Positions 14,014 to 40,276 of a stretch of DNA of 64,000 nt are shown piece by piece. The DNA is from an uncultured Gammaproteobacteria bacterium (GTDB lineage: Bacteria; Pseudomonadota; Gammaproteobacteria; SZUA-229). The first letter of the stretch is position 1. Each line of letters begins with the position of its first letter. The translations under genes and the position numbers were made by a program. The DNA is taken from contig CAVWXQ010000014.1 of the NCBI GenBank assembly GCA_963759005.1, positions 23,655 to 87,654 on the forward strand, in the 5' to 3' direction. Below the pieces are notes generated by a model, which saw nothing but the letters and a program-made list of their open reading frames with translations, was not told where the DNA came from and did not search any database.

Positions 14014-14263
14014 CACATCAAGCCCGGATATTTCATAGGAACGCTGCTAATCTTGCTTAACATTATGATTATTATAAGAAATAGCAGTATATTAGAGAAG
14101 TACACTATGTACCTGACAACGCTATGCAGTTTTTGGAAAAATATCAGCGGCCATTTTGTACGATACCCCTGTAACCATAGCTACGGCTATGCTTTTCGGC
14201 GAATAGTACAAACTGACTCACTGATATTTCCCCAAAATTCTGCATTCCTATGAAATATCCGGG
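14014..14263 (+). mobile_element. MITE copy 1 (about 250 bp, 19-bp TIR CCCGGATATTTCATAGGAA)
   Basis: Perfect terminal inverted repeats. Near-identical copies at 21903, 33239 and 40022. Confidence 0.7.
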
Positions 14264-14289
14264 CTAGCACAATCGAAGCAATGCGCCAG

Positions 14290-14660
14290 GCATGATAACG
14301 AAGTGTCAATTTTTTGACACACGTAATGTCATACTTATTACTCAAAAATATAAAGCTATCCGACTATCAACAATGTATATTTCCTGTCTTTATGACGAAT
14401 TGTTTTACACATTACGTATAAACGATATACTTATATTGCTTTTCCTATTGATAATTATAATATATTTATATCTAGCACATATATTGCCTATTTTTCATAT
14501 GCATCAGGCATGACAAAGAGCGCCAGCTTTGACATACAAAGTGCCAGATATGGCATACGAATGTCATGTTTAGTATACAAAAATATACTTAATATTGTTT
14601 ATACTATTGATAATTATAATATATTTATATCTGGCACATATATTGCTTTTATTTAGAAGC
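14290..14660. repeat. degenerate tandem duplication (about 160-230 bp units) in AT-rich region
   Basis: tattgataattataatatatttatatctRgcacatatattgc at 14447 and 14607, and gcatgaYaa...gtcat... at 14292 and 14512. Confidence 0.4.
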
Positions 14661-14745
14661 AAATACCCTTAATAAGCTTACAAATAAAGTTTTTTTTGTT
14701 AACTTTTTTCCAGTATGCATACTGGAACCAATCGATGAAAGTTGA

Positions 14746-15408
14746 ATGGCGCCCAAAAAAAAGGAGTTATCGATGTCTAAAACTATCCACGTTGCGATTT
14801 GTGATTATTGCTCTACAATTCGATACGGAATTCAGCATATTTTAAACAGGGATGCCAATATCAGCCTGGTTGCTGAAGCAAGCTCACCCAAAGAAATACT
14901 CACCAAATTTACCAGCCTTGATCTGGATGTCATCCTGATTGATCCTGGTGAAAACAGACAGACAGGGTTCGATTGTTTACGTAAATTTCGTGAATTAAAG
15001 CCCAATACCAAAACCATCCTCTTTACCAGTAGTTATAGCGATAAAAATCTGATAGTAGAAGCCATTCAAACAGGCGTTCAAGGTTACCTGCTCAAACAAG
15101 CTGAAAGTGAGGAAATCATAAATGCCATTTATGCTGTCGATCAGGGTGACACGATCCTGGCACCCAGTGTAACAACAATATTATTAGAATATATGCAACA
15201 TAAACAACACCAACTGCAAGCAAACCTAAGTAATCGTGAGCAAGAAGTTCTGGACCAGATAGCCCAGGGCAAAACCAATGGCGACATAGCGAATGCACTA
15301 TTCATCAGTATACGTACTGTTAAATTTCATGTCAGCTCTATTTTGGCAAAATTGAATCTAAAAAATCGAACCGAAGCTGCTTTATGGGGCAATAAGTCCC
15401 CCTGTTAA
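14746..15408 (+). CDS. NarL/FixJ (LuxR-type) response regulator, atypical receiver acid pocket
   Basis: REC domain plus C-terminal HTH LSNREQEVL...IRTVKFHVSSIL. The receiver N-terminus reads DYCS where DD is expected. Confidence 0.75.
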   Translation: MAPKKKELSMSKTIHVAICDYCSTIRYGIQHILNRDANISLVAEASSPKEILTKFTSLDLDVILIDPGENRQTGFDCLRKFRELKPNTKTILFTSSYSDKNLIVEAIQTGVQGYLLKQAESEEIINAIYAVDQGDTILAPSVTTILLEYMQHKQHQLQANLSNREQEVLDQIAQGKTNGDIANALFISIRTVKFHVSSILAKLNLKNRTEAALWGNKSPC

Positions 15409-15608
15409 GTAAATAGTTTACAGGCTGGTACAACAACGGTTAAGCGCAAACTCAAGCGTATAACTTAAATTCCATTACCCGCATAAAAAAGCAGCCAATG
15501 ACTCAGATGCACTTCAGGAAGCCAGTGACGACTATCACATTCATCAACAGAAGCCACTATAAAAGTCTGGATTGTTTTTATGGGTGTCTTTGTTTGTCTT
15601 GTTTATTA

Positions 15609-18600
15609 TTACACGGAAGCTGGGATGATAATCCCGCGTTGGGCCTCAACATCGCTTCCCGGCTCTCGGGCATTCGCCTCACTACGCCATAGCCGTTCCT
15701 GATCGAAGTCCTTCAAGATCCAAAGCAACCAGGCATGATTTCGTTGCCGGGTGGACATGGGTTTGGCGCCCAGCCAAACGGTAACCGGAAATACCAGCCA
15801 TGTGGCAAGCAGAGCGATGAGTAAAATGCTGATTGATGCTTCAAGCGACCATAGTGCCAGGCTAAAAGCCAGGGCTATGGCGGTATAGCCCCAGGTTTTT
15901 TTGAGCGCAGCCATGAATGAAACATGCTGCGTTTCCCTTTCGACCTCCGCCTGGACCTTCCATGTAGCTTGACCAATGAGTAAGCTTTTCACTGCGAGCC
16001 ATAGGCGAAGCGGGCTGTAGAGAACATCAGGCATATAAACAAAAGGCGTTGTAAGTATCTCGAGCCAGGCAGCGATGAATCCCCGCAAGGCCGAATTGAT
16101 ATTTCCAAGCGCCTCGGTACGTTGGCGCAAGAATGAGAGCCTGACCCCCGCTATAAAATTGAGTGATGGCTTATACATTTTAGGAAGCAGCACCAGACCC
16201 AGGATAATAAAATAGAAGTGAACTTTCATGAGCACCGGGTTTGTGTGAATCAAAATCGACTGGCCAAATGTTTCAATGAAAATCCATAGAAAGAAGAGCG
16301 GTGCTCGAAACAGCGCACGTGATGAAAAATGGGCGATATAGTGTGCAGTGTACGGAACAGCCGGCACTTTAATACTGTAGGATAAATTGTCGCTGTGGCT
16401 GTTACCGAAAAGCTTTTTAGCAAGTACGAAAGCGCGACCAATCCATTTTGGCGATAACAATACAGCATTCATCAGGTCACCCTGGGTCCAGCGAGTGAGC
16501 TGCGCCTGACGATTGAACGCGTTAGATGGCACACCTTCGTAGAAAAATACCTGCGGCACATAGGCCGGATTTAGATACAGTGCTTCAATCGTGTCATGGC
16601 TGAGAATATCAAGAGGCAAGGTTTCCCTGGGCGCTTGAGGTGTGCCAATAAACTGTTCAATGAATACGTCATTGTCTGCAAGTCCTTTGCCATAGTGACC
16701 GAATCGACCAAAAGCACGGAACTGTGCTTCCGGCATCTTAGACACGGTATGATGAGACAAAATTTCACGAAAAGCATGCCAGGTATCCATATTGGAAACA
16801 AGCACACCCGACTGGAAGAATCCCCGTTCGGGATTGGCGGCGGCGATCTCAATCAGTGTTCGTATGGCATCGGCGGGAACGCGATTGTCTGCGTCAAGCA
16901 GCACAGTGTAGCGGTAGCTGATATCCTCGTCTGTTCCGTAGGTCTGCCCTGCTTGCTTCAGATCGATTATATCCTGCAACCCACGCGCCTCCAACGCATG
17001 TGTCATTTTCTCGAACTCGTGTTTTAACAACGCTTGATCATTTTCAAGGTTCGAACAAAAACCGAATACTGGCAACTCAGCTGAGCGACCGCGATTGCCA
17101 TATTTTTCTTCGAGATAGGTAAATGGTCGGTCAATTCCTCGTGAACCGAGAAGCATTAAATCCTGGTACTGCCCGGCTTTTTTCAGCGTTGTGGACGTGC
17201 GATGAATATATTTAAAGCCCCGCACAACGCGCTCCACCGAGATCTCGATCGCCTTTTCCAGTTTTTCTCCCGAATAACCCTGTTGTTGCCAACGACTAAA
17301 AAGTCCGCACCAGAAATCCGCACGCAGACAATCGTTGTTTAATTTCATTGCTTCCATATGGCTAATCTTGTGAATTTCCGCCTCTGCAAGCAAGGTGCTG
17401 CGGATCCGCTCACGGTAGTTATCACGCAGGTCCATTTCGTGCTGAACGACAGACAAGGAAGTGGATGCGCTAACTAGTACTGCCGTCAGGTTCCCGTTAA
17501 TGTCCAGATTATCCAGGTAAGAGCGGTACATATTGTCAAAGGCTTCATCACACTCCCGAGCATGATTAGAGCGCAACATGTATGCAACAGTCGTTCTGTG
17601 ACTTGTTGGAATACCATCGGGCATGTCCACACGTCGACACTGAAGAGGCCCTTTTAACAACCGGAACCCGATTAAAAACAATAGCTGGGTAATCACATCC
17701 GCCACCCCCCATATAAGGTAGCCGATAGCGAAAGTTACAAAACCAGCAATGAACACATTTGAAAACGTCCAGTCGATCGTCAATGCATAAAGAACTGTCA
17801 AGCTGATAGTGATGAGTCCTACACACAAAAAATACAGATAGGCTGATATCGGCATTTTTGTTTGAGCTTTACCCGGCTGCTGGGTTGACGATGGCTGGGT
17901 TGACGATGGCTTGCTTTGGAATGCCGCGCCCCGCCCGACCCCTGTTCGACGGCGTAGACCGTCATAAAGGCCAGCCCAGATAGCCCTGAAACCCTGCCAA
18001 TTCATAGAACTAAGCGTCCACAGAGAATACAGGCAGATGTGTCGTCCCAATTTGACGAATTGAACGGGTCGGAGACGCGCAGGACAGGAATACAATGTCA
18101 TCATCAGCACCATATTGCGCAACAGATAGTAGATTCGCAAAGGCGACAATATACCCTGCTCCGAACCACCGAGGCTCTGGTGGCAGTCATGTAACACTTT
18201 ACCTTCAACAGGTACCAATTTAACTTCATAGCCCTTACGTCGAACACGCTGAAACCACTCAACATCCTCGTAGCCGAAGAACAGCCGCTCATCAAAATAG
18301 CCAAGCTCAATGAAGGCCTCTGTCTTGATGAGTGCAGTGGCCGTGGCCACACCGTCCACTGATTTGTGATTGTTGTACATATCACGTAATCCCCAATCGG
18401 CTTCCATCTGTGCCGGGAACCTCCATCCGTCAGTCCACCAGCTTGTCCAAAGACGCTCCGGCTCCTGTGCGAAATGCAATAGAGGCGCAAACACCAACTC
18501 TTCGGGGCGTGATGTCTCGGCCCGCTGAACCAGATCCTCAATTACCTGTGGATCGACGGTGACATCATTATCCAGTGTCAGGATATATTTAGGTGGAGTT

Positions 18601-18956
18601 GCCTTACCTGATTCCAGTACATATTTCAGCGCCTGATTCCTGCCCTGGGCAGCACCTAGATTTTCCTGATTGAGGATCAGGTGAGACCGACTGAAATTCT
18701 TCAGCTCTTGCTGAATAATGGCCACAGAACCGTCTTTTGAGCCGTTATCAACAACGATGATTTCAACATCGAAACAACTGCAATGCACACGGCTTAAGGA
18801 CTGTAGGAGTCGTTGGATCTGGGATTTGGCATCAATGTTCAGAATTACAATGGCAATCCGTGGAGCACAGTCCGCATCATGTTGGGATGCCGCTGTTTGT
18901 GTAACTGCTGCTGGTTGATGGCTATTGGTCGATGAATCGAGCCTAAATGTTGTCAT
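15609..18956 (-). CDS. large fusion glycosyltransferase: N-terminal GT2 plus OpgH/cellulose-synthase-like processive GT2 with TM domains
   Basis: IVVDNGSKDGS and TLDNDV (GT2 N-terminus). VLLDADN and QAQLTRW (QxxRW). Multiple TM helices in the middle and at the C-terminus. Confidence 0.7.
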   Translation of the reverse strand: MTTFRLDSSTNSHQPAAVTQTAASQHDADCAPRIAIVILNIDAKSQIQRLLQSLSRVHCSCFDVEIIVVDNGSKDGSVAIIQQELKNFSRSHLILNQENLGAAQGRNQALKYVLESGKATPPKYILTLDNDVTVDPQVIEDLVQRAETSRPEELVFAPLLHFAQEPERLWTSWWTDGWRFPAQMEADWGLRDMYNNHKSVDGVATATALIKTEAFIELGYFDERLFFGYEDVEWFQRVRRKGYEVKLVPVEGKVLHDCHQSLGGSEQGILSPLRIYYLLRNMVLMMTLYSCPARLRPVQFVKLGRHICLYSLWTLSSMNWQGFRAIWAGLYDGLRRRTGVGRGAAFQSKPSSTQPSSTQQPGKAQTKMPISAYLYFLCVGLITISLTVLYALTIDWTFSNVFIAGFVTFAIGYLIWGVADVITQLLFLIGFRLLKGPLQCRRVDMPDGIPTSHRTTVAYMLRSNHARECDEAFDNMYRSYLDNLDINGNLTAVLVSASTSLSVVQHEMDLRDNYRERIRSTLLAEAEIHKISHMEAMKLNNDCLRADFWCGLFSRWQQQGYSGEKLEKAIEISVERVVRGFKYIHRTSTTLKKAGQYQDLMLLGSRGIDRPFTYLEEKYGNRGRSAELPVFGFCSNLENDQALLKHEFEKMTHALEARGLQDIIDLKQAGQTYGTDEDISYRYTVLLDADNRVPADAIRTLIEIAAANPERGFFQSGVLVSNMDTWHAFREILSHHTVSKMPEAQFRAFGRFGHYGKGLADNDVFIEQFIGTPQAPRETLPLDILSHDTIEALYLNPAYVPQVFFYEGVPSNAFNRQAQLTRWTQGDLMNAVLLSPKWIGRAFVLAKKLFGNSHSDNLSYSIKVPAVPYTAHYIAHFSSRALFRAPLFFLWIFIETFGQSILIHTNPVLMKVHFYFIILGLVLLPKMYKPSLNFIAGVRLSFLRQRTEALGNINSALRGFIAAWLEILTTPFVYMPDVLYSPLRLWLAVKSLLIGQATWKVQAEVERETQHVSFMAALKKTWGYTAIALAFSLALWSLEASISILLIALLATWLVFPVTVWLGAKPMSTRQRNHAWLLWILKDFDQERLWRSEANAREPGSDVEAQRGIIIPASV

Positions 18957-18968
18957 AGCCAGGAGCCC

Positions 18969-18998
18969 CTACGAAATTCGTAGTTTGAAGTACTTCAA
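18969..18998. promoter_or_regulatory. two adjacent perfect palindromes in 5' leader of the GT gene
   Basis: CTACGAAATTCGTAG (18969-18983) and TTGAAGTACTTCAA (18985-18998), 13-42 nt upstream of the start at 18956. Confidence 0.3.
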
Positions 18999-19340
18999 GT
19001 ATAAACCACTGCGTCAGGCGCTGGCAATTGTCTATCGTAGCATTGCTCTCAATACACCCTGTAATAACAATGACTTTTTCAGCCTGCTCCTTCCATCGAT
19101 ACAGCATATTATTGGCTATAGCCAGTGATTTTGCAGCCTAGCACTGAATAACCCTGTTCGCGCACCAGAGCTACCGCTTCTTCTTTTAATTTTCTAGAAT
19201 ATTGTTTGTATGTTCGTTTCTGTCCCATAATGACTAAAATCCGCACTTTGATTTAAAAATCAGCAGCATAGTTATATTTATCGATATTTTTTTGGTTAAA
19301 GTCTAAAATCATCCATATAAGTTAATAAATTGGTGACACA

Positions 19341-20729
19341 ATGACAATAAAACAGGCGCTTATTGTAGATGATTCCAAATCTGCACGTGTCGTGCTAGAA
19401 CGTATGCTTATAGAGCTTGCGCTTGATGTAGATTGTGTTGAGACTGCGGTTGATGCACTCGATTATTTGAAAGATCATCAACCTGATGTGATATTTATGG
19501 ATCACATGATGCCAGGCATGGACGGTTTTGAAGCGGTTAAGCATATAAAAACTAATCCGCATACAACTGCTATTCCTATCATGATGTACACCTCTAGAAG
19601 CGGTGAGGTATACCTTAGTCAGGCGCGTGCACTTGGCGCTGTTGGTATTATTCCCAAAACTATTTCTCCTGTTGGTCTAAAAGAATCTTTATTTAAATTA
19701 GGGTTAATTGATGACCGTCGAATCGAATCCGCACTGGTAGTTGATGAACCAATAGCAGGCAAAGCAGACGAACAGGTAATTAAAAAGCGTCCCTTAACAC
19801 AGCACAGTGACCAAGACACTTTTTTGGAAGAGCTTGAAAGATTGATGGATGACCAGACAGTCGAGTTACACAAAAGTATGTGGCTAGGTGTTGAGTCTGT
19901 TAGTCATGAAATATTCAACCGGCTAAATGGTGAACTTGAAAAACAACTTGAAAAGATGCAACCAGCGTCACCAGTACAAAACAAGATATTCTCGCCATTT
20001 TATTTTGTAGGCGCCTTACTTGTGCTATCGATTTTTTTTAATGTCAGATTACTTTCTGATAACTATCAACTTGAAAAAAACCTGGTAGCCACAAATATAA
20101 ATCACACCATTGCGCCTGATGAGAGCAGCGTAGAAGAAAACCTGGCTGACAAGCAAGATGTATTAAAGGAGTTTGTTTCCTGGGCGCATAATATGGTGCT
20201 CGAATATCCATTTGACGAACTGGCACTGAATGATAAGCGTTTACCCTTCATTGAGGAATTAGTTAAAAAAGCATTGGAAGCCGAATATAGCGGAAACATT
20301 ATTTTACAAACGCATGTTGGCAGATTCTGCATGAACAGAGATCCAATGGGCAACTTTATACTTGCAGACAATACATTATCAATTACACAGTGTGAATATA
20401 TAGGAAATGACCTGCAACCAAATGACGCACCTTCTGCTCATCAATCTTTGAGTTTTGCAAACTATCTTTCGGAAATAAATTCTCTGAACAAAAAAAGTGT
20501 AGAGGTTGACGTTGATAATGTCGCACGGTCATTCGAATTATCAAAATATCCTAAAGCTGTCCCGCAGACTACAGTAGAAGAGTGGAACCTGGCAGCACAA
20601 CTTAATAATCGCATTACCGTTAAGCTGGAGCCAGCACCGACTGAATCGGAGCTAAAGGCCGAATACCTATTGTGGACAAAAAAATTATCTTCGGACAAGC
20701 TTAAAAATGATGCTTCCGCCCCCCAATAA
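19341..20729 (+). CDS. CheY-like receiver domain protein with TM segment and uncharacterised C-terminal domain
   Basis: Canonical REC (IVDDS...IFMDHMMPGMDG...YTSRS...K). Hydrophobic segment FYFVGALLVLSIFF. About 230-aa C-terminus with no motif I recognise. Confidence 0.7.
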   Translation: MTIKQALIVDDSKSARVVLERMLIELALDVDCVETAVDALDYLKDHQPDVIFMDHMMPGMDGFEAVKHIKTNPHTTAIPIMMYTSRSGEVYLSQARALGAVGIIPKTISPVGLKESLFKLGLIDDRRIESALVVDEPIAGKADEQVIKKRPLTQHSDQDTFLEELERLMDDQTVELHKSMWLGVESVSHEIFNRLNGELEKQLEKMQPASPVQNKIFSPFYFVGALLVLSIFFNVRLLSDNYQLEKNLVATNINHTIAPDESSVEENLADKQDVLKEFVSWAHNMVLEYPFDELALNDKRLPFIEELVKKALEAEYSGNIILQTHVGRFCMNRDPMGNFILADNTLSITQCEYIGNDLQPNDAPSAHQSLSFANYLSEINSLNKKSVEVDVDNVARSFELSKYPKAVPQTTVEEWNLAAQLNNRITVKLEPAPTESELKAEYLLWTKKLSSDKLKNDASAPQ

Positions 20730-20801
20730 AATCACTTTTATTGCAGCAGAAGCTTAGATCTGTCACCTGGTCAGTCTGCTTTAAGGTAGCCGTCCCCCAT
20801 C

Positions 20802-21830
20802 ATGTCCAAATGTCTGAAGTTTTTAGTCGCCATGCCAGTACAGCTTGTTTTGCTTCTGTCAATGTGCGCATGTAGTAATCCTAAATTTCAGACGCGACCA
20901 GATACCACTCTTCATAACACCCGACTAACGCCCGGGTCAGTGATAATGTCTGACGGTTATGTGTTACCCATGAAGACATGGCCATCTACAGATGACCCCG
21001 CCTTCGTGGTGCTCGCCATGCACGGTTTCAATGATTACAGCAACGCCTTCGATGCGACTGCACATAAATTTGCAGATAATTTGATCACTACCTACGCCAT
21101 TGACCAGCGCGGCTTCGGTGCGACCAGGCAGCACGGCATCTGGGCTGGAGACAGCACCCTGCAATCCGACCTCATAGCAACGGTCAATCTGCTGTGCGAG
21201 AAACACTCTGGTCTGCCATTATTCCTGCTGGGCGAGAGCATGGGCGGTGCTGTTATACTCAGTGCAGCACAGCAGTTGAAACGGACCTGCATACAGGGTG
21301 TAATCCTGTCATCCCCTGCCGTATGGGGCTGGCAAACCATGCCATGGTGGCAAACAGTGCCGCTAAGACTTCTCGCCCATACACTTCCCGAACTCACAGT
21401 GACCGGTGAAGGCCTGGAAATTCATCCGTCGGACAACGTCGAAATGCTACGTGCATTAGGTAGTGACTCCCTGATCATTAAAGAGACACGCATCGACGCG
21501 CTCTACGGGCTCACTGACCTAATGGAAACCGCCCTGGTAAACAGCGGGTCACTGAAAATGCCAGCATTAATCCTGTATGGCGAACACGATGAAATCATTC
21601 CACCAAAACCATTCTGCCAGATGCTCAATAAGCTGCCTGATAGAGCCACATCTCATTGGCGCCTGATGCTCTACCCCAACGGGTATCACATGCTATCACG
21701 TGATTTGCAGGGTGAGACTGTAATCCAGGATATGGTAACGTGGATACACAACCAAAAATCCTGGTTACCTTCTGGTCAGGAAATTACTCAGAACACCTCT
21801 CGCTTATCGGCGCTGAGTGAATGCGATTAA
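20802..21830 (+). CDS. secreted alpha/beta-hydrolase (lysophospholipase/monoglyceride lipase-like)
   Basis: HGFNDY plus GESMGG (GxSxG nucleophile elbow). Signal peptide. Confidence 0.7.
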   Translation: MSKCLKFLVAMPVQLVLLLSMCACSNPKFQTRPDTTLHNTRLTPGSVIMSDGYVLPMKTWPSTDDPAFVVLAMHGFNDYSNAFDATAHKFADNLITTYAIDQRGFGATRQHGIWAGDSTLQSDLIATVNLLCEKHSGLPLFLLGESMGGAVILSAAQQLKRTCIQGVILSSPAVWGWQTMPWWQTVPLRLLAHTLPELTVTGEGLEIHPSDNVEMLRALGSDSLIIKETRIDALYGLTDLMETALVNSGSLKMPALILYGEHDEIIPPKPFCQMLNKLPDRATSHWRLMLYPNGYHMLSRDLQGETVIQDMVTWIHNQKSWLPSGQEITQNTSRLSALSECD

Positions 21831-21902
21831 CTACACACTAACCATTACCAACACCTTGTTATTCTGTGGATTGAATAACTACATTGAGGAATCTCTAATT
21901 AA

Positions 21903-22318
21903 CCCGGATATTTCATAGTAATGCAGAATTTTGGGGAAATATCAGTGAGTCAGTTTGTACGATTCACCGATAAAATCGTAGGAACGATTTTACATGAGCG
22001 AAGCGAGCCCGTAGGGTTAATGGGCAGGAGGCCCGTAATTAAAGCATAGCCGTTCGGCACACCGCTTCGCTGCTCCATGCATTGCCCTACTACCGTACTT
22101 CCTATACATAAGCTATGGTTACAGGGGAATCGTACAAAATGGCCGCTGATATTTTTCCAAAAACTGCATATACTGCCATGGATGGCAGGTAGTAGGGCAA
22201 TGCAGGAGCTATTGCCGAGCATTGTCAGGTACATAGTGTACTTCTCTAATATACTGCTATTTCTTATAATAATCATAGCGTTAAGCAAGATTAGCAGCGT
22301 TCCTATGAAATATCCGGG
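21903..22318 (-). mobile_element. MITE copy 2 with about 170 bp of nested insertions
   Basis: Same TIRs in inverse orientation. Contains extra internal segments that are inverted repeats of each other (gcattgccctactacc / ggtagtagggcaatgc). The terminal ...GGGTT overlaps the TAA stop of the ada-like gene. Confidence 0.7.
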
Positions 22319-23173
22319 TTAAGTTGACAATCCAGTTCTCGCCGCCTCCCATAGATGAATTGCGTGCTTTCGAGTCTCGCCCCAATGATAGCCACCAAGA
22401 TTTCCGCTTTGTTGAATAACACGATGACAGGGTATAAGAAACCCAATCGGGTTTGAACCGATAGCCCTGCCAACAGCACGGGCTGAATTTGGACGTCCAA
22501 TTGAAGCAGCCACCTGAGAATAACTCACTACTTTGCCCATTGGAATATCAAGCAAAGCCCGCCAGACACTTACCTGAAAATTTGTACCAGAGACCAGTAA
22601 AGATAATGGGCGGTCTTTATCATTTTCTATAGCGAACATTGAATCGATAATTTCAGCTGTATGTTTGCTGTTGTTTATTAACTGCGCATAAGGCCAGCGC
22701 TTCACAAGATCTTTAATTTCCTGTTCAGCATTGCTCTCTTCAGGAAATGAAAATTTACAGATCCCTCGTGGCGTAATAGCAATAAACGCGCTGCCAAATA
22801 CCGTTTCATGAACCGCATACTCAATAGTCAGGCCACTGCCCTGCGTTTTAAATTCACCTGGCGTAACTGCCTCGAGACTAACAAAGTGGTCGTAAAGTCT
22901 CGAGCCGCTACTCAACCCGACTTCATGCGTTACCTCTAATATGGGTTTAGCCTCTTGCAGCAATTTTTTTGCGCGTTCTACGGTAAGAACCTGTAAGAAT
23001 CTTTTTGGGGTAACGCCTGCCCAACGCGTGAACATCCGCTGAAAATGATAAGAACTTAAATGAACATGCGCTGCTATTTCATCCAGGGTTGGCTGTTGCC
23101 CAACCTGATTAGTTACATAATGGATAGCTTTCGCGATTCGTTCATAATCCGACATATTTCTTATGTCCCGCAA
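22319..23173 (-). CDS. Ada-like bifunctional AraC-type regulator / methylated-DNA-protein-cysteine methyltransferase
   Basis: AraC HTH in the N-terminus. MGMT active site IPCHRVI in the C-terminus. Confidence 0.8.
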   Translation of the reverse strand: MRDIRNMSDYERIAKAIHYVTNQVGQQPTLDEIAAHVHLSSYHFQRMFTRWAGVTPKRFLQVLTVERAKKLLQEAKPILEVTHEVGLSSGSRLYDHFVSLEAVTPGEFKTQGSGLTIEYAVHETVFGSAFIAITPRGICKFSFPEESNAEQEIKDLVKRWPYAQLINNSKHTAEIIDSMFAIENDKDRPLSLLVSGTNFQVSVWRALLDIPMGKVVSYSQVAASIGRPNSARAVGRAIGSNPIGFLIPCHRVIQQSGNLGGYHWGETRKHAIHLWEAARTGLST

Positions 23174-29055: not shown

Positions 29056-29228
29056 TTTGATGGTGAGCTGTTTTTTATTTTGACGACATAATCGAATATT
29101 CTAATATATTTATACTTGTATGACCATCCCGTATACTTCACAGGAATGCCGCTGATGGGCACATACGACCCACATGGACATGGAAAGTTCGGGAAACGTA
29201 ATAAGCCTGATAATTATTTTCAATGTGT

Positions 29229-29382: not shown

Positions 29383-30130
29383 GTGTGTAGTTATATGACT
29401 AATGTAAGTTTTCAACAATACAAAGTATGGGATGTAGCAACCAGATTATTTCACTGGATTAATTTCATAACCATTATTTGCCTTATTTTTATGGGTTTAA
29501 TTATGTTGTTCAAGAAAGAACTCGGCATAACCAGCATTGAAGCTAAAGTGGGTTTAAAAGAAGTTCATGTCATTATAGGTTATGTCTTTGTATTAAATTT
29601 TGCCTGGCGAATCATCTGGGGTTTCATCGGAAACAAATATGCACGCTGGACTAACATTGTTCCGGGCAAAGGTTTTATTAGTCTTGTTCGTAATTACATT
29701 CGATTCTGTAAAAAGCGGCGACCCCGAACAATACATCGGCCACAACCCGCTGGGACGTCTGGCAATATTATTCATTCTTTTACTTATGTTTACCTCAGCC
29801 GTAACCGGTCTGGTGCGCGCCGGCACTGATATTTATTACCCGCCTTTCGGTTCGTTTGTTGCTGACTATATTGCGGAGCCCGGTATAGACCCGGACAGCA
29901 TAAAACCTTATATTGCGGAAGGCACGAATAAAGATAAGGCTGCCAGCTTAAAAGCGTTTAAAGATCCTTTTGGTCAAATCCACATCTATTGTGCATACGT
30001 ACTTATGTTTATGATCGTCCTGCACATTTTCGTTGTGGTGCGCACCGAGGTACGAGAAGGTGGCAGTTTGATCACCGCCATGTTTACTGGCAACAAAATA
30101 TTGGCAAAGAAACCGATTGATATAGATTGA
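29383..30130 (+). CDS. cytochrome b561 / Ni-Fe hydrogenase b-type cytochrome family, frameshifted near 29670
   Basis: RLFHWINFITIICLIFMGL (frame A). GHNPLGRLAILF and HIFVVVRTEV (frame B). The two ORFs 29383..29829 and 29600..30130 overlap. Confidence 0.6.
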
Positions 30131-30202: not shown

Positions 30203-30224
30203 CTTAAACAAAAATGCAACTTTA

Positions 30225-32375: not shown

Positions 32376-32697
32376 TTAAAGGCCTCCGGGCGTTCTTTAT
32401 TGTGCTTAATGTTTTGTTAGTACGGTGGCATTTATACTCCCATTGAAAATAAAACCACAGTAACTTGTTCGTTCATTTTCGTTCATTTTTTACAAGCGTA
32501 TTTTTATTATTTAAATCATTAATTTACAAATCTTTACAAACGGTTTTTAACGATGACCGGTGACACAAAACCGAGCTTTCCATTTTTAATATTAATTGTT
32601 ATTGCTGAGCCAAATATTTCATATTGATTTATGTCATTATATATAGCCGACAAACGGTGTATAAAACCACTTCTGTATTTTTACCGATTGAGCAAAA

Positions 32698-33124
32698 TAT
32701 GAGCGATTTAACTTTCCAGATGCTACTGCATTGTAATTACATAGACGACCAGAATACTATCGATCAGTTACATGTCGAACATTTAGTTAAAGACAACTGG
32801 CAGGAATTTGATATCAATACCTCCAGCCCTGGCTTCGATATTTTTATGTATGCTATTCTCACCTGTCAGCATATGTACTTTAGAAATAATGCTGCAGAAT
32901 ATGGTCTGGTTCTGGACTCAAGTGAAGGGCTATTAACAGTCATTGCTAACGAACACAGAAGCATTGAAACATTGAATGTCGAATTTAAAGGCAAACTGAA
33001 AAAAGGCGAGGCGACTGAAGACATCGTGAATTCTATTACTGCACGCATGGGCTTATGCCCGGTTTCCATCAACCTGAAGGATATATTAAACAATCATATA
33101 ACAGCGAGTTTTGAACCTGCCTGA
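32698..33124 (+). CDS. OsmC/Ohr-family protein (putative hydroperoxidase)
   Basis: ATG at 32698 (MSDLTFQ...). Paired Cys motifs AILTCQHMY and MGLCPVSINL resemble OsmC AACFSMA / AGCPVSQ. Confidence 0.5.
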
Positions 33125-33238
33125 CAGGAAATAAAAAGTCGGTTACAAAACCACTAAGTTAAGCGCAGGAAAACCAGGTCAGCAATAGTCACTGTATCTA
33201 TTTAGTGCTGCAGTCTCATGAGGGAATGCTTATACGAG

Positions 33239-33395
33239 CCCAGATATTTCATAGGAACGCTACAGCTTTAACTTAACATTATGATTGTATTGAGAAATAT
33301 TGGCATATTAGCAAAGCACACTATGTACCCGATAACGCTCGGCAATTGCTCCTGCATTGCCCTACTACCTGCCATCCATGGCAGTATATGCAGTT
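33239..33395 (+). mobile_element. MITE copy 3 (5' portion only, variant with internal insert)
   Basis: Left TIR cccagatatttcataggaacgc plus an internal segment identical to the insert in copy 2. The right end is missing. Confidence 0.5.
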
Positions 33396-33472
33396 GCTCG
33401 GGAATTATGGCTAGAACACATTACGCCCATAAATGGGCACAATGTTCACAACATATCTAGTGTAAGCCCCTA

Positions 33473-33958
33473 CTAAGATAAACTGAGTTTGATTGCATCA
33501 ACCAGATCATCACAGGCTTTGGCGCATGCATCGCACTCGATATGCTTCTCATGTTTTTTGCATTCTTTTGCACAATCCTGGCACACTTTGTCACATATTT
33601 GTGAGTACTCTTTAGTGTAACTGGAGTTCGATGCCACAAGATAGGCAAAACCACCACAAACTGACATCATTTCCTGCACCTTGCTCGCACAGTCAGCCAG
33701 TTCGGTATCACCCTCGGTAAAACTAACCATACAGTGTGCAACACAACGTCGCCCTTTGTCGAGGCAAGCATTAACTGCATCCATCACATCGGTTAACTGC
33801 GTTGCATGTTTGCTGTGATCGTGCTCTTTTGCGGCCGCCGATGCAGAACCTGCATAAGCCATGGTCGCAGCAGCACCCATCCCCAGCAATACATCTCTAC
33901 GACTGATGCCATTTTTTACCTGTTGCTGTTTTTCAGATACGGTTTCTTTTTCTGACAT
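33473..33958 (-). CDS. TAT-exported Cys-rich four-helix-bundle protein (Csp/DUF326-like copper storage)
   Basis: Twin-arginine signal SRRDVLLGMGAAATMAYAG. Many Cys in CxxxC-type spacing (CLDKGRRCVAHC, CDKVCQDCAKEC, CDACAKAC). Confidence 0.65.
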   Translation of the reverse strand: MSEKETVSEKQQQVKNGISRRDVLLGMGAAATMAYAGSASAAAKEHDHSKHATQLTDVMDAVNACLDKGRRCVAHCMVSFTEGDTELADCASKVQEMMSVCGGFAYLVASNSSYTKEYSQICDKVCQDCAKECKKHEKHIECDACAKACDDLVDAIKLSLS

Positions 33959-33993
33959 AGTTTGGGACTCCCCTGTTAAATTGTGAAGTATAT

Positions 33994-34380
33994 TTGTACT
34001 ACAGATGTGAACAACAAATCAAGATATATTATGAATATAGCAGTACCTTAATGATACATCGTGATGTTTTGGAGTTAACGAGTCAGCAGATCAGTTCCTT
34101 TCGCAATTGGCGTAAGCAAAACTATGGAAACATGGTGGACGTTATGAATACTCTTATCGAAAAGCGTGTCGAATTTAAAAAAGCTTCGCTAAATCCCGAT
34201 ACATCGGAAGAAGAATTGATTAAGACGCAAGATGATATTCTGAATTTGCACAAAAAACTTCTTGAGATAAAGTTAACCTGCCGTAAGATGTTAGTTGACA
34301 GTTTCACAGAGGCACAGTGGGATAATTTTGCATTTGCGGTTGCTGATCATCCCAAGCTTGGGAGTTTAATTCAGCGATAG
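33994..34380 (+). CDS. Spy/CpxP-family LTXXQ periplasmic protein, N-terminally truncated paralog (possible pseudogene)
   Basis: About 85% nucleotide identity to 39178-39501 from HRDVLELTSQQ onward. Lacks the signal-peptide portion present in the 38992 copy. Confidence 0.5.
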   Translation: MYYRCEQQIKIYYEYSSTLMIHRDVLELTSQQISSFRNWRKQNYGNMVDVMNTLIEKRVEFKKASLNPDTSEEELIKTQDDILNLHKKLLEIKLTCRKMLVDSFTEAQWDNFAFAVADHPKLGSLIQR

Positions 34381-34522
34381 GAAATTGCGATGGGTTTATA
34401 ATCACTTTCATACATGTGTGCCGTGCAGCATATAACCTGGTAGTTACGTAATCTCACCGGTTTGGTTGAGTCTATGTGTCAAAAATACAAACAGCACTAC
34501 CGGAATGATAATTGTTGAATGG

Positions 34523-34578
34523 CCGTTGTGGGTCGACTTTGCCCTGTCAGCTCATTACCCCGAAGGAGAATATGCGGC
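34523..34578 (+). repeat. 56-bp dispersed repeat, copy A
   Basis: ccgttgtgggtcgRctttgccctgtcagctcattaccccgaaggagaatatgcggc. Identical to 37971-38026 except for 1 nt. Confidence 0.6.
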
Positions 34579-34831
34579 CAAAAACAGTCCCTCACCAGTT
34601 ATCTGAAGCAAATAATGCAGCATGATGGGAGAACTGTTGAACATACATGATAATGGCACGTAATATAGGCCATATCACCCAGCAAATTCGACCACATAGT
34701 CATTAGGAATCCAATACCTCCAATTGATACAACCAGAAGTATCGACGCATACATACACTTTATTTAACAGGGAACCAATAAAAAGTCAGATCATTGGTAT
34801 TTCACAATCCGACCGTTGCATTTCCTCCAAT

Positions 34832-35065
34832 TCACAGCCCGATAAGTTGGGCATGCGCTCCCTGGTCCGTTATGCGTTTCAGAATTTTCTGAGAATCCAT
34901 TTCCTCAGGATTGTATTGTACAACGGTCAGATGTGGTGTTTTGCTCGAACCATGTACGCTGACAACCCCGTCCAGGGCACGAAGACTGTCCTCTACCGTT
35001 ATTCTCTGTTCAGGGCTCAGGTTTTCATCGATATGCACAGTAAGATCAACAAGATTGATATCCAT
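34832..35065 (-). CDS. small hypothetical protein (HMA-like fold guess, no CxxC)
   Basis: 77-aa ORF. No motif I can place. Confidence 0.25.
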   Translation of the reverse strand: MDINLVDLTVHIDENLSPEQRITVEDSLRALDGVVSVHGSSKTPHLTVVQYNPEEMDSQKILKRITDQGAHAQLIGL

Positions 35066-35471
35066 AGCCTACCTCCTATATATCTGGTGCACTAATCACT
35101 CAAAGCGTGATAGTTTAACCTCAAATTAGTGTAAACGACCGCCTCCCTGATGTTCTTGTTCTATGTCAAACTTTCGCTTCGTTTTCTGGCGAAGCATACG
35201 TAAGCCTCGGCTAATACTGTAACTACCAGCGTGCTCGCTTTGGTTCGGTTAAGGCATATTCACAGACGCTAACGATAATGGGTCAACTACTGTCTGTTAG
35301 CTATAGCTAGTATTAAGAGCAGCTAACAGTCTCTCTTGGGTCGATAGCTGCCTGTTCGATGCAAGTAATATTAGAATTATCTAACTGTCGCCTTTGGTTC
35401 CACAACGCTCTATCAGCTCAGTATCATGACCGCGGATAAGCGGCCAATAACGCCCATTCAAGATCAAAGGC

Positions 35472-35631
35472 ATTAGTCCGCGAAGTACGCGAAAGACGCG
35501 AAGTAAAACCTTTTTTATTTTTTATTAAGACGCAGCAGTAAAGGGAATAAATAAACAACTTATATTTTTTTCTTTGCTTTCTTTGCTTTCTTTGCTTTTT
35601 TTGCTTTTTTTGCGTTCTTCGCGGACTAATG
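35472..35631. repeat. 15-bp TIR-bounded element enclosing (tttctttgc)n tandem repeats
   Basis: cattagtccgcgaag ... cttcgcggactaatg with 3x tttctttgc plus 2x tttttttgc inside. Confidence 0.45.
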
Positions 35632-35986
35632 TTTTAAGTTTTTTGAATGAGTAATAAGGGTCGGCAACAGACATAAAAAAGCACCCGTAGAGGGAGTCCG
35701 TTCTCTAGTGTGCTCGCAGCCTGACTTCCGAATCTTGATGCTGACCGTGTATCGGCTGATTTGTATATTACTGGTAGACCTGTTCTATTGCTGTCGGTCC
35801 GAGCTTGTTGAAATCAGGATTTTCCTACAGGTTGATATTAAAGTAACTTGATATACATTCTTCCAGTGAACCCAGTAACAGGCACACCTGTGACAGAAGG
35901 GTCGTTTAAATATACAGGTAATACATTAACCGTTCCCGAAGTAGAATTACAGCCTAAGGCTACGTTTGCATACGAGTAAATGGATG

Positions 35987-36030
35987 CCGATATTGGGCAA
36001 TAATTTCATCAAGTGGATATCACTATATTG
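35987..36030 (+). repeat. about 45-bp repeat, copy 1 (inverted copy at 38731-38781)
   Basis: ccgatattgggcaataatttcatcaagtggatatcactatattg versus the reverse complement of caatatagtgatagtgaaatccacttgaaggaaattattgcccaatatcgg. Confidence 0.45.
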
Positions 36031-36152
36031 CCCATACTAACTTTCACATTTTAGGGCTGGCTCACCATCGGCCCAAATTTTTTCGACTTTTCACACAACC
36101 TGGTCCAACAAGAGACATTCAGCACAAATAAAAACGGCTCCTGAAGGAGCCG

Positions 36153-36467
36153 CTATTGATTAACTTTTAATTGTTGTGCCTTCTTTCCTCTGGCAACACC
36201 GATTAAACCGATTAACCCTGAACCAAAAAGCCATACGGCTGCAGGAACGGGAACAGCTGAAACCGATATATTGTCTAATTGTAAATAACTTCCGCTTGTC
36301 TCAGTCCATGATGCACTTAATACATTAGACCAATTTAAATTAAAGGTTTCCAAGCCTATAATACTATCAGTGCTTACAACAGTAGATAATAATGATCCTG
36401 AATTTGTTACAGCATTAATACTTATGTTTTGGCTAACACCTGAATTAAATACGTCGCCAATCTATAG
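36153..36467 (-). pseudogene. PEP-CTERM sorting-signal protein remnant
   Basis: C-terminus VPVPAAVWLFGSGLIGLIGVARGKKA (PEP-like motif, TM, basic tail). Only about 100 codons open and no proper start. Confidence 0.5.
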
Positions 36468-36597
36468 AAAATAAATTAAATGCGCCGCCATTAAGTTGAG
36501 TTAGAGTCGTTGTGTAATTGCTGTGCGTGCACCAGCACGGTGGGGGTTAATACGTTGGCTCCCCGGGTCTTTCTGGGCGCATAAAACCCTTTGGTCA

Positions 36598-36690
36598 GCA
36601 ACCCCGATAGCGTTTAACGGCACGTTTGATGCTGATCTTTGACACGCCAAAAGCACGCGCAATCTCTGCCGTTTGCCTGTACTGGAATAG
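36598..36690 (-). mobile_element. IS630-family transposase N-terminal HTH remnant
   Basis: RQTAEIARAFGVSKISIKRAVKRYRGC* matches the IS630 N-terminal pattern R.EAA.RFGVS.S...RW..RYRE.G. Stop codons on both sides. Confidence 0.4.
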
Positions 36691-37356
36691 TTATGAGAGA
36701 AAGTCACGCCACTCGGATCAGCATTGTATGGAGAAGAGCTTTCCCAATGAAGAATGGAGCCAATGCCAGCAGAAGAGTAATAAACAGGTTGAAAATCCTT
36801 GGAAGCATCAAGAGATGGCCAGTCGTAATGGAGCCAATGCCAGCAGATTTAAACTTTGCTTGTGTTGTCAAAAAGATTTCTTCAAAATCAAATAATTGAC
36901 GAATGTCTGCAATGGGTCGTAATGGTACTTTAGCGGCAGCTAATATTGAGAGTTGTTAACGGTTGTCTTTGGGTCGATAACTGGCATTCCATTATTCCAG
37001 ATGACATCATCATCTTGGTCTGAAACTATAACCATAAAGCACTCACCCAACAATCGAGAGGCATGGATGATTGCACCCTTCTTATTGTCGTAACTCCCCA
37101 CGGTTGACAATGATTGAGAATGTTTATCGGGTTTGCACTGTACTATCCACATATTACTATCCTGTTTGTAATTATCTGGTCGTCATTACGTCGAGTTTGT
37201 TTATTCAAATATCAAAGCAATATTTATACCAAAATAATAATATATAAGATTATCAGGGCATTAATTATATAAGAGCATTTAATGGATTACTTAGTTGTAA
37301 AGCAGGGTTACAGTTGTTGAATGGCCGCTTAGGCAACAGACATAAAAATGCGCCCA

Positions 37357-37540
37357 CTATCCATAAGGGGGTGCGGCATAGTCAGGTAACCTTTCGTATA
37401 TTTCTTCACTATAAACCGTCACTTCTTCAGGTGCGTCTATACCTATCCTGGCATGGTTGCCTTGAATGTCCAGTTAGAGTAATTTCAATATCACCGTCTA
37501 AAATAATTGTTTCGCCAATTTTTTTAGTCAGCAACAACAT
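37357..37540 (-). pseudogene. csrA: csrA (carbon storage regulator) with +1 frameshift at about 37476
   Basis: RBS aggagg, then MLLLTKKIGETIILDGDIEITL. The rest (LDIQGNHARIGIDAPEEVTVYSEEIYERL) is in the +1 frame. One extra base in ctaACTgg. Confidence 0.7.
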
Positions 37541-37970
37541 TATTACCTCCTAGCTTTATTGGTACCTTTAAAACTGGAAGTTGTTATGGCAAGTATGAAA
37601 ATAATGCTTATGACTGATGACCACGCTACCATCTCTATAACTATTGCTTCTCGCTTGTTATCTTTTTTATCTTTCATTTTTAATTTACTTGTCGTTGCGA
37701 CGAAAACTTGTTTTAATAATGATGCACAGCAAAAACCATACCAAAATAAGAAATTATCTAACTATCAATTAGATAGCTAAATATTAGCATTTCATTGATT
37801 TTTAACGTGTTAAGAACACCGGACAGAATACGAAATATAAGGCTGGAAATAACAGGATTTCTCTACACTTGCTGAACATCTCTCATGGGTCGGAAGCTAC
37901 CATACAAGCATATAACGCATTATTTAAAGCAAATCTTAGGATGTAAATAATTTCGACAGGGGCTGACAGT

Positions 37971-38026
37971 CCGTTGTGGGTCGGCTTTGCCCTGTCAGCT
38001 CATTACCCCGAAGGAGAATATGCGGC
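37971..38026 (+). repeat. 56-bp dispersed repeat, copy B
   Basis: See 34523-34578. Preceded by gctgacag, which pairs with the internal ctgtcagc. Confidence 0.6.
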
Positions 38027-38122
38027 TATTGGAAGTTCACGATACAATAAAAATGACCTTGGAGTAGCTATTTTTCTGGTGATATAAATTAGAAACCTGT
38101 GGTCAAATAACCGTTGCTATTA

Positions 38123-38560
38123 TTATTTATGTGGCGACAATGAGGACAGGTACTCAGAAGAACACCAACCTTTTCCGTGAAATTGTGTATTCACATAATA
38201 CCAACCATCAGCCTCTCTAATATATTCAACCTCTGATCCAACTTTCAGTACGGCGATTGGAGTGGTGTCCAATGATGCAGAAGGTCTGAGGTTTAACTTT
38301 GCTCTAACTGTATGTGTTGGAACAAATGCCTTTACTGCTTCAGATGTCATATGGGCTGATCTTGGAGCATCAGGTTCAGTTGCAGCTTGCGACTCATCTG
38401 GCTCCGCGATTTGTGGGCCGGGCGCATGGGCTGACGCATCTTCCTCTGGGGCCGTGGCTTCCTTTTCCGAGCAACCGGCACCCAGCAGCATCACTAGTGC
38501 CAGTGTGGGGGTTATCGCCTTTACGCAAAATCTCCGGCGCTGGGTAGTATCAATAGACAT
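38123..38560 (-). CDS. SH3b-domain lipoprotein
   Basis: RBS ggaggtg, then ATG at 38560. Lipobox LGAGC. C-terminus VRAKLNLRPSAS...VLKVGSEVEYI...GWYYV..GKGWCSSEYL matches the SH3_3 pattern. Confidence 0.6.
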   Translation of the reverse strand: MSIDTTQRRRFCVKAITPTLALVMLLGAGCSEKEATAPEEDASAHAPGPQIAEPDESQAATEPDAPRSAHMTSEAVKAFVPTHTVRAKLNLRPSASLDTTPIAVLKVGSEVEYIREADGWYYVNTQFHGKGWCSSEYLSSLSPHK

Positions 38561-38730
38561 GGGTTCACCTCCGTAATGACGTGATTGGGTAATCTGTTGT
38601 TGTGAAGTGTACGTGAAAATCACTTGGGTGTAAAAAAAAGTCGGGTCCTGTCCTTCCCTCGAATCACAGCGGGTTGCAGGCTAAACACGTACTTTCGGCT
38701 GCCAGTTCAACCGTATGAAAGGTTTAGTAT

Positions 38731-38781
38731 CAATATAGTGATAGTGAAATCCACTTGAAGGAAATTATTGCCCAATATCGG
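38731..38781 (-). repeat. about 45-bp repeat, copy 2 (inverted relative to 35987)
   Basis: See 35987-36030. The flanking ttttcacacaRcctggKcc motif is also shared. Confidence 0.45.
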
Positions 38782-38991
38782 CTTCCATTTACCACTTTCA
38801 AATATCACTAATACTTTTCACACAGCCTGGGCCATGAACGGTCATTCAGATGCACATCTAAATAATATATACACTGAGCTTACAATGTAGGACTTTTCCT
38901 ACAAGTCATTCAGGTGTAAGTCATATTATTCGATATATTTTTGAGTATTATAATCATGCGGGGGAATTAATACTTCAGAGGAAGGGAAAAT

Positions 38992-39501
38992 ATGAATATA
39001 AATGCTATAAAACTCGCCACTATTCTCATAACAACCTTTTTGTTTGTCGAGCCACTCTCGGCAATGCATAAAAGTGACCATGATCTATCCAATGATGAAT
39101 GGGCGATACTAATGCGCAAACTTGAGCTACTGGATGGTGTTAACTACATGCCAACATTATTACCTACAATAATGAGACATCGTGACGTATTGCAGTTAAC
39201 GAGCCAGCAGATCAACTCCTTTCGCAATTGGCGTAAGCAAAACTATGAAAACATGGTAAAAGTAATGAATACAATTATCGAAAAGCGTATCGATTTCAAA
39301 AAAGCTTCGTTAAACCCCAAGACTTCAGAGGAAAAATTACGTGAGATGCAAAGCGATATTCTGACCTTGCATAAACAGCTTCTTGAGATAAAGTTATCCT
39401 GTCGTAAAATGCTCGTTGATAGTTTTACAGAGGAGCAGTGGGATAACTTTGCCTTTGCGGTTGCTGATCACCCCACGCTAGCGAGTTTAGTTCAACAATA
39501 G
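38992..39501 (+). CDS. Spy/CpxP-family LTXXQ periplasmic protein (full length, signal peptide)
   Basis: Signal peptide MNINAIKLATILITTFLFVEPLSA. LTSQQ motif. Paralog of 33994-34380. Confidence 0.6.
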   Translation: MNINAIKLATILITTFLFVEPLSAMHKSDHDLSNDEWAILMRKLELLDGVNYMPTLLPTIMRHRDVLQLTSQQINSFRNWRKQNYENMVKVMNTIIEKRIDFKKASLNPKTSEEKLREMQSDILTLHKQLLEIKLSCRKMLVDSFTEEQWDNFAFAVADHPTLASLVQQ

Positions 39502-40021
39502 GAATTTGTTGCGGGTTTTAACCTACCTATGTGTCCGGTCTATACACCTATTTCATGCATGCACCGGACGTCATGCAAATAATATGGTAGATACGTATTT
39601 CAACGGTTTGGTTGCACCATGTATCAAAATGCAACCAACACTCCCGTAATGGTAATTACTGAATGACCGTATTGGGTCGGTTAACGACCTTCAAGCAATT
39701 AATCATCGCCATTATAAATCAGCGGTCGCTTACCGGTACACACTGCGTGAAAACTCAATTTGTAAATTGCAATAAATAGTGGCTTCATCGAATGATTGTG
39801 AAGCCACTATCGAGTATTCTTTGAGTTTTCACATACTCCGGGCCATGAGCAGATCGTCATAAGTTTTTACTATGTCCCAAACTTACCATGCAAGACCCCT
39901 TTACTTTTAATGTTAAGTTAAATTTTTAGCGTTCCTAAGAATTATTCGGATTAACTCCAGAAACAAAAACGGCAGCCTCAATGGCTGCCGCTATCATGCT
40001 ATGAATTAGTTTTTACTGTAA

Positions 40022-40276
40022 CCCGGTTATTTCATAGTAACGCTGCTAATCTTGCTTAACACTATGATTATTATAACAAATAGCAATATATTAGAAAAAC
40101 ACACTATGTACCTGACAACGCTATGCAGTTTTTGGAAAAATATCAGCGGCCATTTTCTACGATTCCCCTGCAACCATAGCTACGGCTATGCTTTTCGGCG
40201 AATCGTACAAACTGACTCACTGACCGATTTTAATAAAACATGACCCCATCGTCTGCATTCCTATGAAATATCCGGG
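40022..40276 (+). mobile_element. MITE copy 4
   Basis: Both TIRs intact. Terminal ...GGGTT overlaps the TAA stop of ORF 40277-40564. Confidence 0.7.

Follow-up and report, generated by a model that had tools for sequence, protein, structure and literature searches.

This study focused on a small, dispersed repeat in a 64,000-nt stretch of DNA from an uncultured gammaproteobacterium (contig CAVWXQ010000014.1, positions 23,655 to 87,654; the whole stretch is referred to here as the window), and on the question of which kind of transposase could have moved it. The original prediction described the repeat as a MITE (miniature inverted-repeat transposable element) with 19-bp terminal inverted repeats (TIRs), and proposed that it inserts at TA or TTAA and derives from an IS630/mariner-like source. 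The element does have the features of a bacterial MITE, being small, free of any transposase gene, bounded by TIRs and target-site duplications, present in dispersed copies, and having ends in common with an insertion sequence (IS). The source appears to be a different one: the 19-22-nt termini very probably serve as recognition ends for a clade of ISs of the IS1380 family, to which ISPa33 and ISPosp7 belong.

When the window was searched for the 19-nt terminus CCCGGATATTTCATAGGAA, with up to 3 mismatches tolerated, 8 matches were recovered against an expectation of 0.01, and none of 100 shuffled sequences reached 8. Together with the many copies and their target-site duplications, this upholds the prediction of a TIR-bounded MITE family. 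The inventory amounts to three complete copies, one truncated copy, and one end fragment of 48 bp. Copy 1 (14023-14263, plus strand) is the canonical 241-bp form, with its A-end on the left and perfect 19-nt TIRs; its true start lies 9 bases to the right of position 14014, where it had been placed before, and it is flanked by CAAG (14019-14022) on the left and CTAG (14264-14267) on the right. Copy 2 (21903-22318, minus strand) is a variant of 416 bp that contains three additional modules; it lies in the opposite orientation to copy 1 between TTAA at 21899-21902 and TTAA at 22319-22322. Copy 3 (33239-33395, plus strand), preceded by CGAG, is truncated and consists of the A-end and one of the same modules; it has no right terminus, so that of the four copies first credited with 19-bp termini at both ends only three are complete. 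Copy 4 (40022-40276, plus strand) is 255 bp long. TTAA had been read to the right of copies 2 and 4, with no consistent TTAA on the left; the right flanks stand, but copy 2 has TTAA on its left as well, and the left flank of copy 4 is GTAA. The fragment is an A-end remnant with a degenerate TIR (39902-39949, minus strand) that adjoins a TTAA, and was recognised from the inverted-repeat listing and from its BLAST coverage by family members.

The family extends beyond the window, as had been anticipated. A scan for the exact 19-mer, using one genome per species, detected 78 further loci, mostly in three uncultured gammaproteobacterial metagenome-assembled genomes (MAGs), namely CAWDMF (27 loci), JAJDNP (19), and CAVYHW (17), with the remaining few in other gammaproteobacterial or Thiotrichaceae MAGs. 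Pairing of the termini gave 54 bounded copies, most commonly 241 bp in length, with a second class of about 295 bp, longer variants (892 bp at most), and deletion forms as short as 67 bp. Copy 1 is 93-96% identical to copies of other genomes. The genes of the window share only 70-77% nucleotide identity with the three MITE-rich MAGs, and closer relatives, with proteins 93-99% identical, are present in metagenome samples ERZ21818088-93. No match to copy 1 was found by BLAST in plasmid and phage collections, and tblastn with IS1380 and IS630 transposases found nothing inside the MITE copies.

If the element were a MITE of the IS630/Tc1-mariner type, only TA would be duplicated, within preferred TTAA or CTAG sites, and the transposase would be of the IS630 family, such as the remnant reported at 36.6 kb. 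Among the 54 copies, the left flanks were TTAA in 29, CTAG in 14, CTAA in 3, and TTAG in 3, and the right flanks were TTAA in 32, CTAG in 10, TTAG in 4, and CTAA in 3, these 4-mers all being of the form YTAR (Y, pyrimidine; R, purine). Once later-found loci were included, YTAR bordered 46 copy entries at both ends, three CTAA entries among them representing one insertion seen in three samples; in 44 of the 46 the two 4-mers were identical (28 TTAA, 9 CTAG, 3 TTAG, and 4 CTAA), and no base preference was visible outside them. The central TA and the mostly palindromic 4-mers are what an IS630-type element would also leave, by duplicating TA and contributing one extra base at each end, and taken alone they are ambiguous.

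The ambiguity is removed by flanks that are not palindromic and by a filled and empty pair of sites. The filled site (L159, L160, and L162; loci retrieved from other genomes and metagenomes are cited by L numbers) reads ...gaatgactCTAA, then the 241-bp element, then CTAAacaccctaaaag, that is, ...gactCTAA and CTAAacacc on its two sides. The empty site (L161), in a contig whose flanks are 99% identical to those of the filled contigs, reads ...gaatgactCTAAacaccctaaaag (junction form ...gactCTAAacacc) and has a single CTAA. In a second case, the filled locus L006 has CTAG on both sides, and paralogous small repeats in L068 and L070 are intact with a single CTAG. Because all four bases are duplicated in the CTAA pair, and because direct TTAG/TTAG and CTAA/CTAA flanks occur, the element duplicates 4 bp (YTAR) directly, not TA. 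Reverse-complementary flank pairs (CTAA/TTAG), which a TA duplication predicts, were absent among the MITEs. Near-identical copies also differ in both the outer and inner flank bases (CTAG in L006 vs TTAA in L063, both 93-96% identical to copy 1), so all four flank bases derive from the target. The same loci show that the element is polymorphic between nearly identical genomes and has, therefore, recently moved or been lost, the single CTAA of the empty site being compatible with either no insertion or seamless excision.

The transposase evidence likewise turns against an IS630-type source. An IS630-family IS is present in the same community, in L024, but its ends are unrelated to those of the MITE (TA followed by CTAAG...) and it merely sits in a MITE fragment. 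The supposed IS630-type remnant at 36.6 kb gave only a sub-threshold match to HTH_23 (E 0.005; 17 bits vs a cut-off of 24.6), and tblastn with an IS630 transposase query found nothing at that site. RUP, the IS630-derived MITE of Streptococcus pneumoniae, is similar to the window element in that its repeats are small, intergenic, and bounded by TIRs, and its target has a TA at the centre. IS630-derived MITEs such as RUP duplicate TA only, whereas the window MITE duplicates four bases and its ends are IS1380-like, not IS630-like. Since, in addition, the autonomous elements with MITE ends belong to the IS1380 family, an IS630-type source retains almost no credibility, and the TA/TTAA target that was ascribed to it is replaced by a 4-bp YTAR duplication. 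As a separate observation, the IS630-family IS of L024 (L024:1160-2400) has its own inverted ends and lies inside or beside the MITE fragment; its contig is binned as Flavobacteriaceae yet comes from the same sample as gammaproteobacterial MAGs, and may be mis-binned.

The autonomous elements came to light beside unpaired termini, where the open reading frames (ORFs) were those of ordinary genes except for transposases in L024 and L069. The latter, in a Planctomycetota MAG, is an IS of 1608 bp that reads TTAA-CCCGGATATTTCATAGGAA...CAGATGAAATATCCAGG-TTAA, ending CCAGG-TTAA, with a left end identical to the MITE terminus (19/19 bases). Its protein (450-462 aa) scores 428 bits on the NCBIfam model NF033539, 'IS1380 family transposase' (cut-off 180), and 556 bits on Pfam PF13701, with no IS5 model reported. 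A second copy of this IS in the same MAG (L043) is flanked by TTAG/TTAG and carries an unrelated insertion. Thousands of relatives of the transposase are 75-89% identical to it. The relatives were sampled at 80 metagenomic loci (proteins 52-78% identical to that of L069), and in the 58 where both ends were visible the ISs measured 1.56-1.66 kb, began with CCCGGATATTTCA or CCCGCATATTTCA, and had YTAR directly outside. A terminal core of 14-16 nt is common to more than 50 of these related ISs. Two members, named in RefSeq annotations, are found on finished plasmids: ISPa33 of Pseudomonas putida pKF715A (CTAA-CCCGGATTTCTCATG...CCGGG-CTAA) and ISPosp7 of Polaromonas JS666 (CTAG-CCTGAATATTTCA...GCGGG-CTAG). 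Full-length ISs with the TIRs of the MITE, which the original prediction had suggested searching for, do therefore exist, and they are of the IS1380 family.

In its ISfinder description the IS1380 family has ends that begin with CC and direct repeats of 4-5 bp, and the MITE agrees on both counts, with ends CCC...GGG and a duplication of 4 bp. It was placed with the ISPa33/ISPosp7 group because it shares both ends and YTAR target with it: one end of the form CCCGGAT(A/T)T(T/C)TCA..., GGG at the other, and direct 4-bp repeats of YTAR (CTAA in ISPa33, CTAG in ISPosp7, TTAA in L069, and TTAG in L043). The differences are equally plain. The ISs of the group are about 1.56-1.66 kb long and carry one transposase gene of 435-465 aa, whereas the MITE of the window is 241-416 bp, lacks a transposase, and shares only the terminal 14-19 nt.

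An IS5-family transposase would be another conceivable mover. IS5 inserts at YTAR with a 4-bp duplication, so the target and duplication length of the MITE equal those of IS5 and do not discriminate by themselves; the two families are also related, as the IS1380-type transposase gives a weaker match to the general DDE_Tnp_1 model (PF01609). What separates them are the transposases and the ends. Every autonomous element found with MITE ends encodes an IS1380-family transposase (NF033539), no IS5-type transposase was found beside any terminus, and the MITE ends start with CCC, while IS5-group ends start with GG. An IS5-group MITE is accordingly very improbable.

Several observations weigh against an IS1380-family source. 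When the MITE was compared with 82 IS loci, its similarity to each of them stopped after the terminal 14-19 nt. Neither the window nor the 78 gammaproteobacterial loci (about 600 kb) yielded an intact IS1380-family transposase; the sole trace, in one host MAG, was a pseudogene remnant covering some 54 aa of the N-terminus, at one edge of L048 (7835-7999). The IS with the 19/19 end match resides in a Planctomycetota MAG, not in the MITE hosts. Full-length ISs in short-read contigs (L079-L158) were always flanked by YTAR, but the two flanks were identical in 24, reverse-complementary in 7, and mixed in 24. Lastly, one flank is imperfect in three copies of the window (CAAG, GTAA, and CGAG). The discordant flanks of the ISs are probably the result of chimeric assembly, given that such ISs occur in several copies and that many of the contigs stop just a few bases beyond the IS; the evidence for target duplication by the ISs was for this reason taken from the copies in long-read MAGs and from finished plasmids, not from short-read contigs. 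As for internal sequence, the comparison indicates that the MITE shares only its TIRs with the ISs, and is not a simple deletion derivative of any sampled IS.

Under an IS1380-family source, a DDE transposase of this family, supplied in trans, would bind both ends of the MITE, excise or copy it, and join it to the target, where YTAR is opened by a staggered cut of 4 bp. Such mobilisation in trans by an IS1380-type transposase is inferred from the shared ends and target. Insertions inside genes would be selected against, and the survivors would often lie exactly on stop codons, where the duplication would preserve an in-frame stop, leaving the protein unchanged and adding the element to the 3' untranslated region (UTR). 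Internal modules and deletions create sub-variants, which then spread.

The relationship to stop codons is visible in the window. It had been claimed that the element end supplies or overlaps the stop of two genes; copies 2 and 4 do abut stop codons, but in both the stop lies in the flanking TTAA and not inside the element. At copy 2 the gene is ada-like (22319-23173, minus strand) and specifies an AraC-type helix-turn-helix and a methylguanine methyltransferase (Pfam HTH_18, PF12833, and MGMT, PF01035); its minus-strand TAA stop (22319-22321) is part of the TTAA target duplication at 22319-22322. At copy 4 it is a coiled-coil-like ORF of 95 aa (40277-40564, minus strand), whose TAA (40277-40279) falls in the right TTAA flank. 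On the minus strand, copy 4 is followed downstream by a terminator-like hairpin (39968-39992; a pattern match only); because the copy lies between the ORF stop and this hairpin, it is probably transcribed as the 3' UTR of the 95-aa ORF. Among the 54 bounded copies, ORFs of at least 80 codons end exactly in the flank of 7, and in that of 1 further copy with a mutated TTGA flank, compared with 0 and 2 for the control frames. The abutment follows from the target itself, since YTAR reads TAR (TAA or TAG) on either strand: a gene stop preceded by a pyrimidine is a target, and its duplication leaves the stop in frame.

The history of the ada-like locus is more involved. In relatives with ada-like proteins 93-99% identical to that of the window, the gene ends ...ACT TGA GCAATAAG and has no element there, while the gene of the window ends ...ACT TAA, followed directly by CCCGG, with the last residues of the protein unchanged. 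Nucleotide identity to L159 is 97% up to the stop. Beyond it, the relatives have a stretch of 1.29 kb (L159:966-2254) between the ada-like and hydrolase genes, which holds an ORF of 133 aa and, in some of them, a 241-bp MITE at a CTAA site; this stretch is missing from the window, where positions 21858-22318, comprising copy 2 and about 45 bp, take its place. The TAA of the ada-like gene thus either existed already as a variant of TGA, providing a TTAA target, or was made at the junction of an insertion and a deletion, for example by recombination between two copies.

The MITE also has a pronounced internal structure. The single-strand fold of copy 1 is predicted at -84.8 kcal/mol, against -45.4 ± 4.8 for shuffled sequences (z = -8.25), with the termini paired together and element positions 102-223 forming a long imperfect hairpin (14124-14245, plus strand; 32 pairs). 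Across 12 gap-free copies, 91% of cells were paired as predicted, compared with 27-41% when the partners were slid by 1-3 columns; the values were 98.6% for the TIR of 19-22 nt and 93.5% for the long hairpin. Four pairs of the long hairpin have changed on both sides, for example G-C to A-U (7 vs 5 copies) and C-G to A-U (8 vs 3 copies), and three further pairs have done so in a shorter helix in the left part. These counts come from related copies and may represent few events; even so, the pattern suggests that the internal hairpin is kept by compensatory base changes. The only ORF in the element, a frame of 48 codons (MYLTTLCSFWKNISGHF...; 14107-14253 in copy 1), is open in about 14 of 20 copies of 241 bp despite 5-20% divergence. 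It was considered as a gene and rejected, as it shows many replacements, is broken by indels in other copies, and overlaps the hairpin; it is probably non-coding.

A structure of this kind raises the alternative that the repeat is a functional RNA or regulatory sequence, comparable to REP, ERIC, or Correia repeats and acting, for instance, in 3'-UTR stabilisation, with its mobility secondary or extinct. The very stable fold, the compensatory changes in two helices, and the location of copy 4, with a stop codon on one side and a terminator-like hairpin on the other, all speak for such a role, as does the arrangement of neighbouring genes, in that the same end faces the gene in 7 of the 8 stop-abutting copies and 3' ends are turned towards the element in more cases than 5' ends (50 vs 31). 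On the other hand, 7 of 8 is not significant, and no overall bias in orientation relative to neighbouring genes was found. Rfam at gathering thresholds gave no match anywhere in the window, scans of copies 1 and 4 for promoters and terminators found nothing inside the element above shuffled background, and the covariation comes from related copies. The presence/absence polymorphism and the target duplications are, moreover, the behaviour of a transposon. As the principal explanation of the repeat, an RNA or regulatory function is quite unlikely, but such a role is compatible with an IS1380-associated MITE and does not compete with it.

Copy 2 is one of the variants of the family. The extra internal segments that had been noticed in it, one of them in common with copy 3, were resolved by alignment into three minus-strand modules. 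The first, ins3 (21971-22040, 70 bp), is 90-96% identical in 10 MITE copies of other genomes; ins2 (22054-22110, 57 bp) is partly the reverse complement of part of ins1; and ins1 (22171-22218, 48 bp) is the one that recurs in copy 3, at 33339-33386. The same variant type as copy 2 was found in L041, L010, L032, and L058. The idea that sub-variants are propagating gains support from this, as all three modules occur inside copies of other genomes at 90-100% identity. Because they do so in varying combinations, the family is a mosaic whose sub-variants spread. A second family of small repeats, about 100 bp in length, was noted in the same MAGs (L068:3180-3283, L070:999-1076, L021, and the flanks of L006); one of its copies, that of L006, is interrupted by the MITE, and the flanks of copy 1 weakly resemble it.

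Copy 1 sits, as reported, on a compositional boundary, where the GC content steps from about 0.6 to about 0.35, with the final ORF of high GC 75 bp away. Up to position 13,947 the coding GC is 0.58-0.68, and beyond it about 0.44; total GC in 1-kb intervals is 0.52-0.68 to the left of the step (0.59-0.68 over 1-12 kb) and about 0.44 to the right (14000-64000). Genes on the high-GC side specify SCO1/SenC, a SurA-like peptidyl-prolyl isomerase (PPIase), a beta-propeller/cytochrome-D1-like protein, and a C-terminal fragment of a secretin, and this side could be a horizontally acquired block or part of a chimeric contig. In a 94%-identical relative (L167:1-127) a MITE occupies the same site in the opposite orientation and is 100% identical over 127 nt to window positions 14021-14147, which could reflect an independent insertion, an inversion in place, or an assembly effect. 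Just to the right, direct repeats of 63 nt (14433-14495 and 14592-14654; 89% identical) lie in a spacer of 28% GC upstream of a gene for a LuxR-type response regulator; this spacer is variable, and the relatives L166-L169 align to it differently.

Other features of the window concern neighbouring sequences. A solo TIR-like 19-mer at 29128-29146 (plus strand), with 3 mismatches to the terminus, is doubtful; it was rejected as an IS end, being degenerate, beside a cytochrome-b-like gene, and without element sequence behind it. It is situated 250 bp upstream of that gene, which seems to be a single membrane protein gene split by a frameshift, as ORFs 29383-29829 and 29600-30130 overlap in different reading frames. 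An inverted repeat of 32 nt (35976-36007 and 38761-38792; 97% complementary) brackets 2.75 kb that contain short ORFs only and the degenerate helix-turn-helix remnant (about 36.55-36.62 kb, minus strand) that gave the sub-threshold HTH_23 match; this stretch is possibly what remains of another, decayed mobile element that has no relation to the MITE. Around it are two pairs of dispersed direct repeats, 34044-34343 with 39165-39464 (83% identical) and 34516-34578 with 37964-38026 (94% identical); through the first pair, ORFs 33994-34380 and 38992-39501 are paralogues. The repeats come in a different order at each place, which points to a duplication with rearrangement around the element at 36-38 kb.

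Comparison with known systems places the MITE in a wider setting. It has a counterpart in Nezha of Anabaena and Nostoc, for which ISNpu3 is the presumed helper (Zhou et al. 2008, in PMC3184786). As described there, Nezha is likewise small and non-coding; it has TIRs, direct repeats, and a fold predicted to be stable, close relatives show both filled and empty sites, and the IS with the same TIRs is found only in another organism. In that account it differs in sequence, in hosts, and in its size of 130-170 bp (PMC3184786). No paper on an IS1380-associated MITE was found in the literature searched, the coverage of which was incomplete, and the element of the window may be an early documented MITE tied to IS1380.

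A more distant resemblance is to the eukaryotic transposon piggyBac, which has been paired with IS1380-like elements as its prokaryotic counterpart (PMC5718144), while IS1380 has served as outgroup to the piggyBac superfamily (PMC10813416). Both piggyBac and the MITE duplicate a 4-bp target of the TTAA type and have ends that start with CCC and finish with GGG, and TTAA is the commonest target of the MITE (28 of the 44 identical flank pairs), although its target is looser (YTAR, with CTAG, TTAG, and CTAA also used). These ends and this target fit the pairing made in the literature. It is a speculative and rather unlikely extension that the MITE and the ISPa33-like clade are a bacterial working equivalent of piggyBac, with a 4-nt staggered cut at YTAR, footprint-free excision, and a hairpin under selection. 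Were it true, some of the presence/absence polymorphism between genomes that are 99% identical would stem from true excisions, the discordant flanks of the ISs would be 4-nt overhangs carried from the donor site, and the hairpin would be needed for transposition or as an RNA structure in the 3' UTR.

The family assignment of this MITE is thus corrected from IS630 to IS1380, and a large, widespread clade of IS1380 elements is seen to have one end sequence and one target in common. With the ends, the YTAR target, and the filled and empty sites clearly defined, annotators are able to mask and track the repeat in these gammaproteobacteria, and a caution is added that a gene 'ending in a transposon' is here not truncated. 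Because of the resemblance to piggyBac, the IS1380 clade might serve as a bacterial model of that chemistry.

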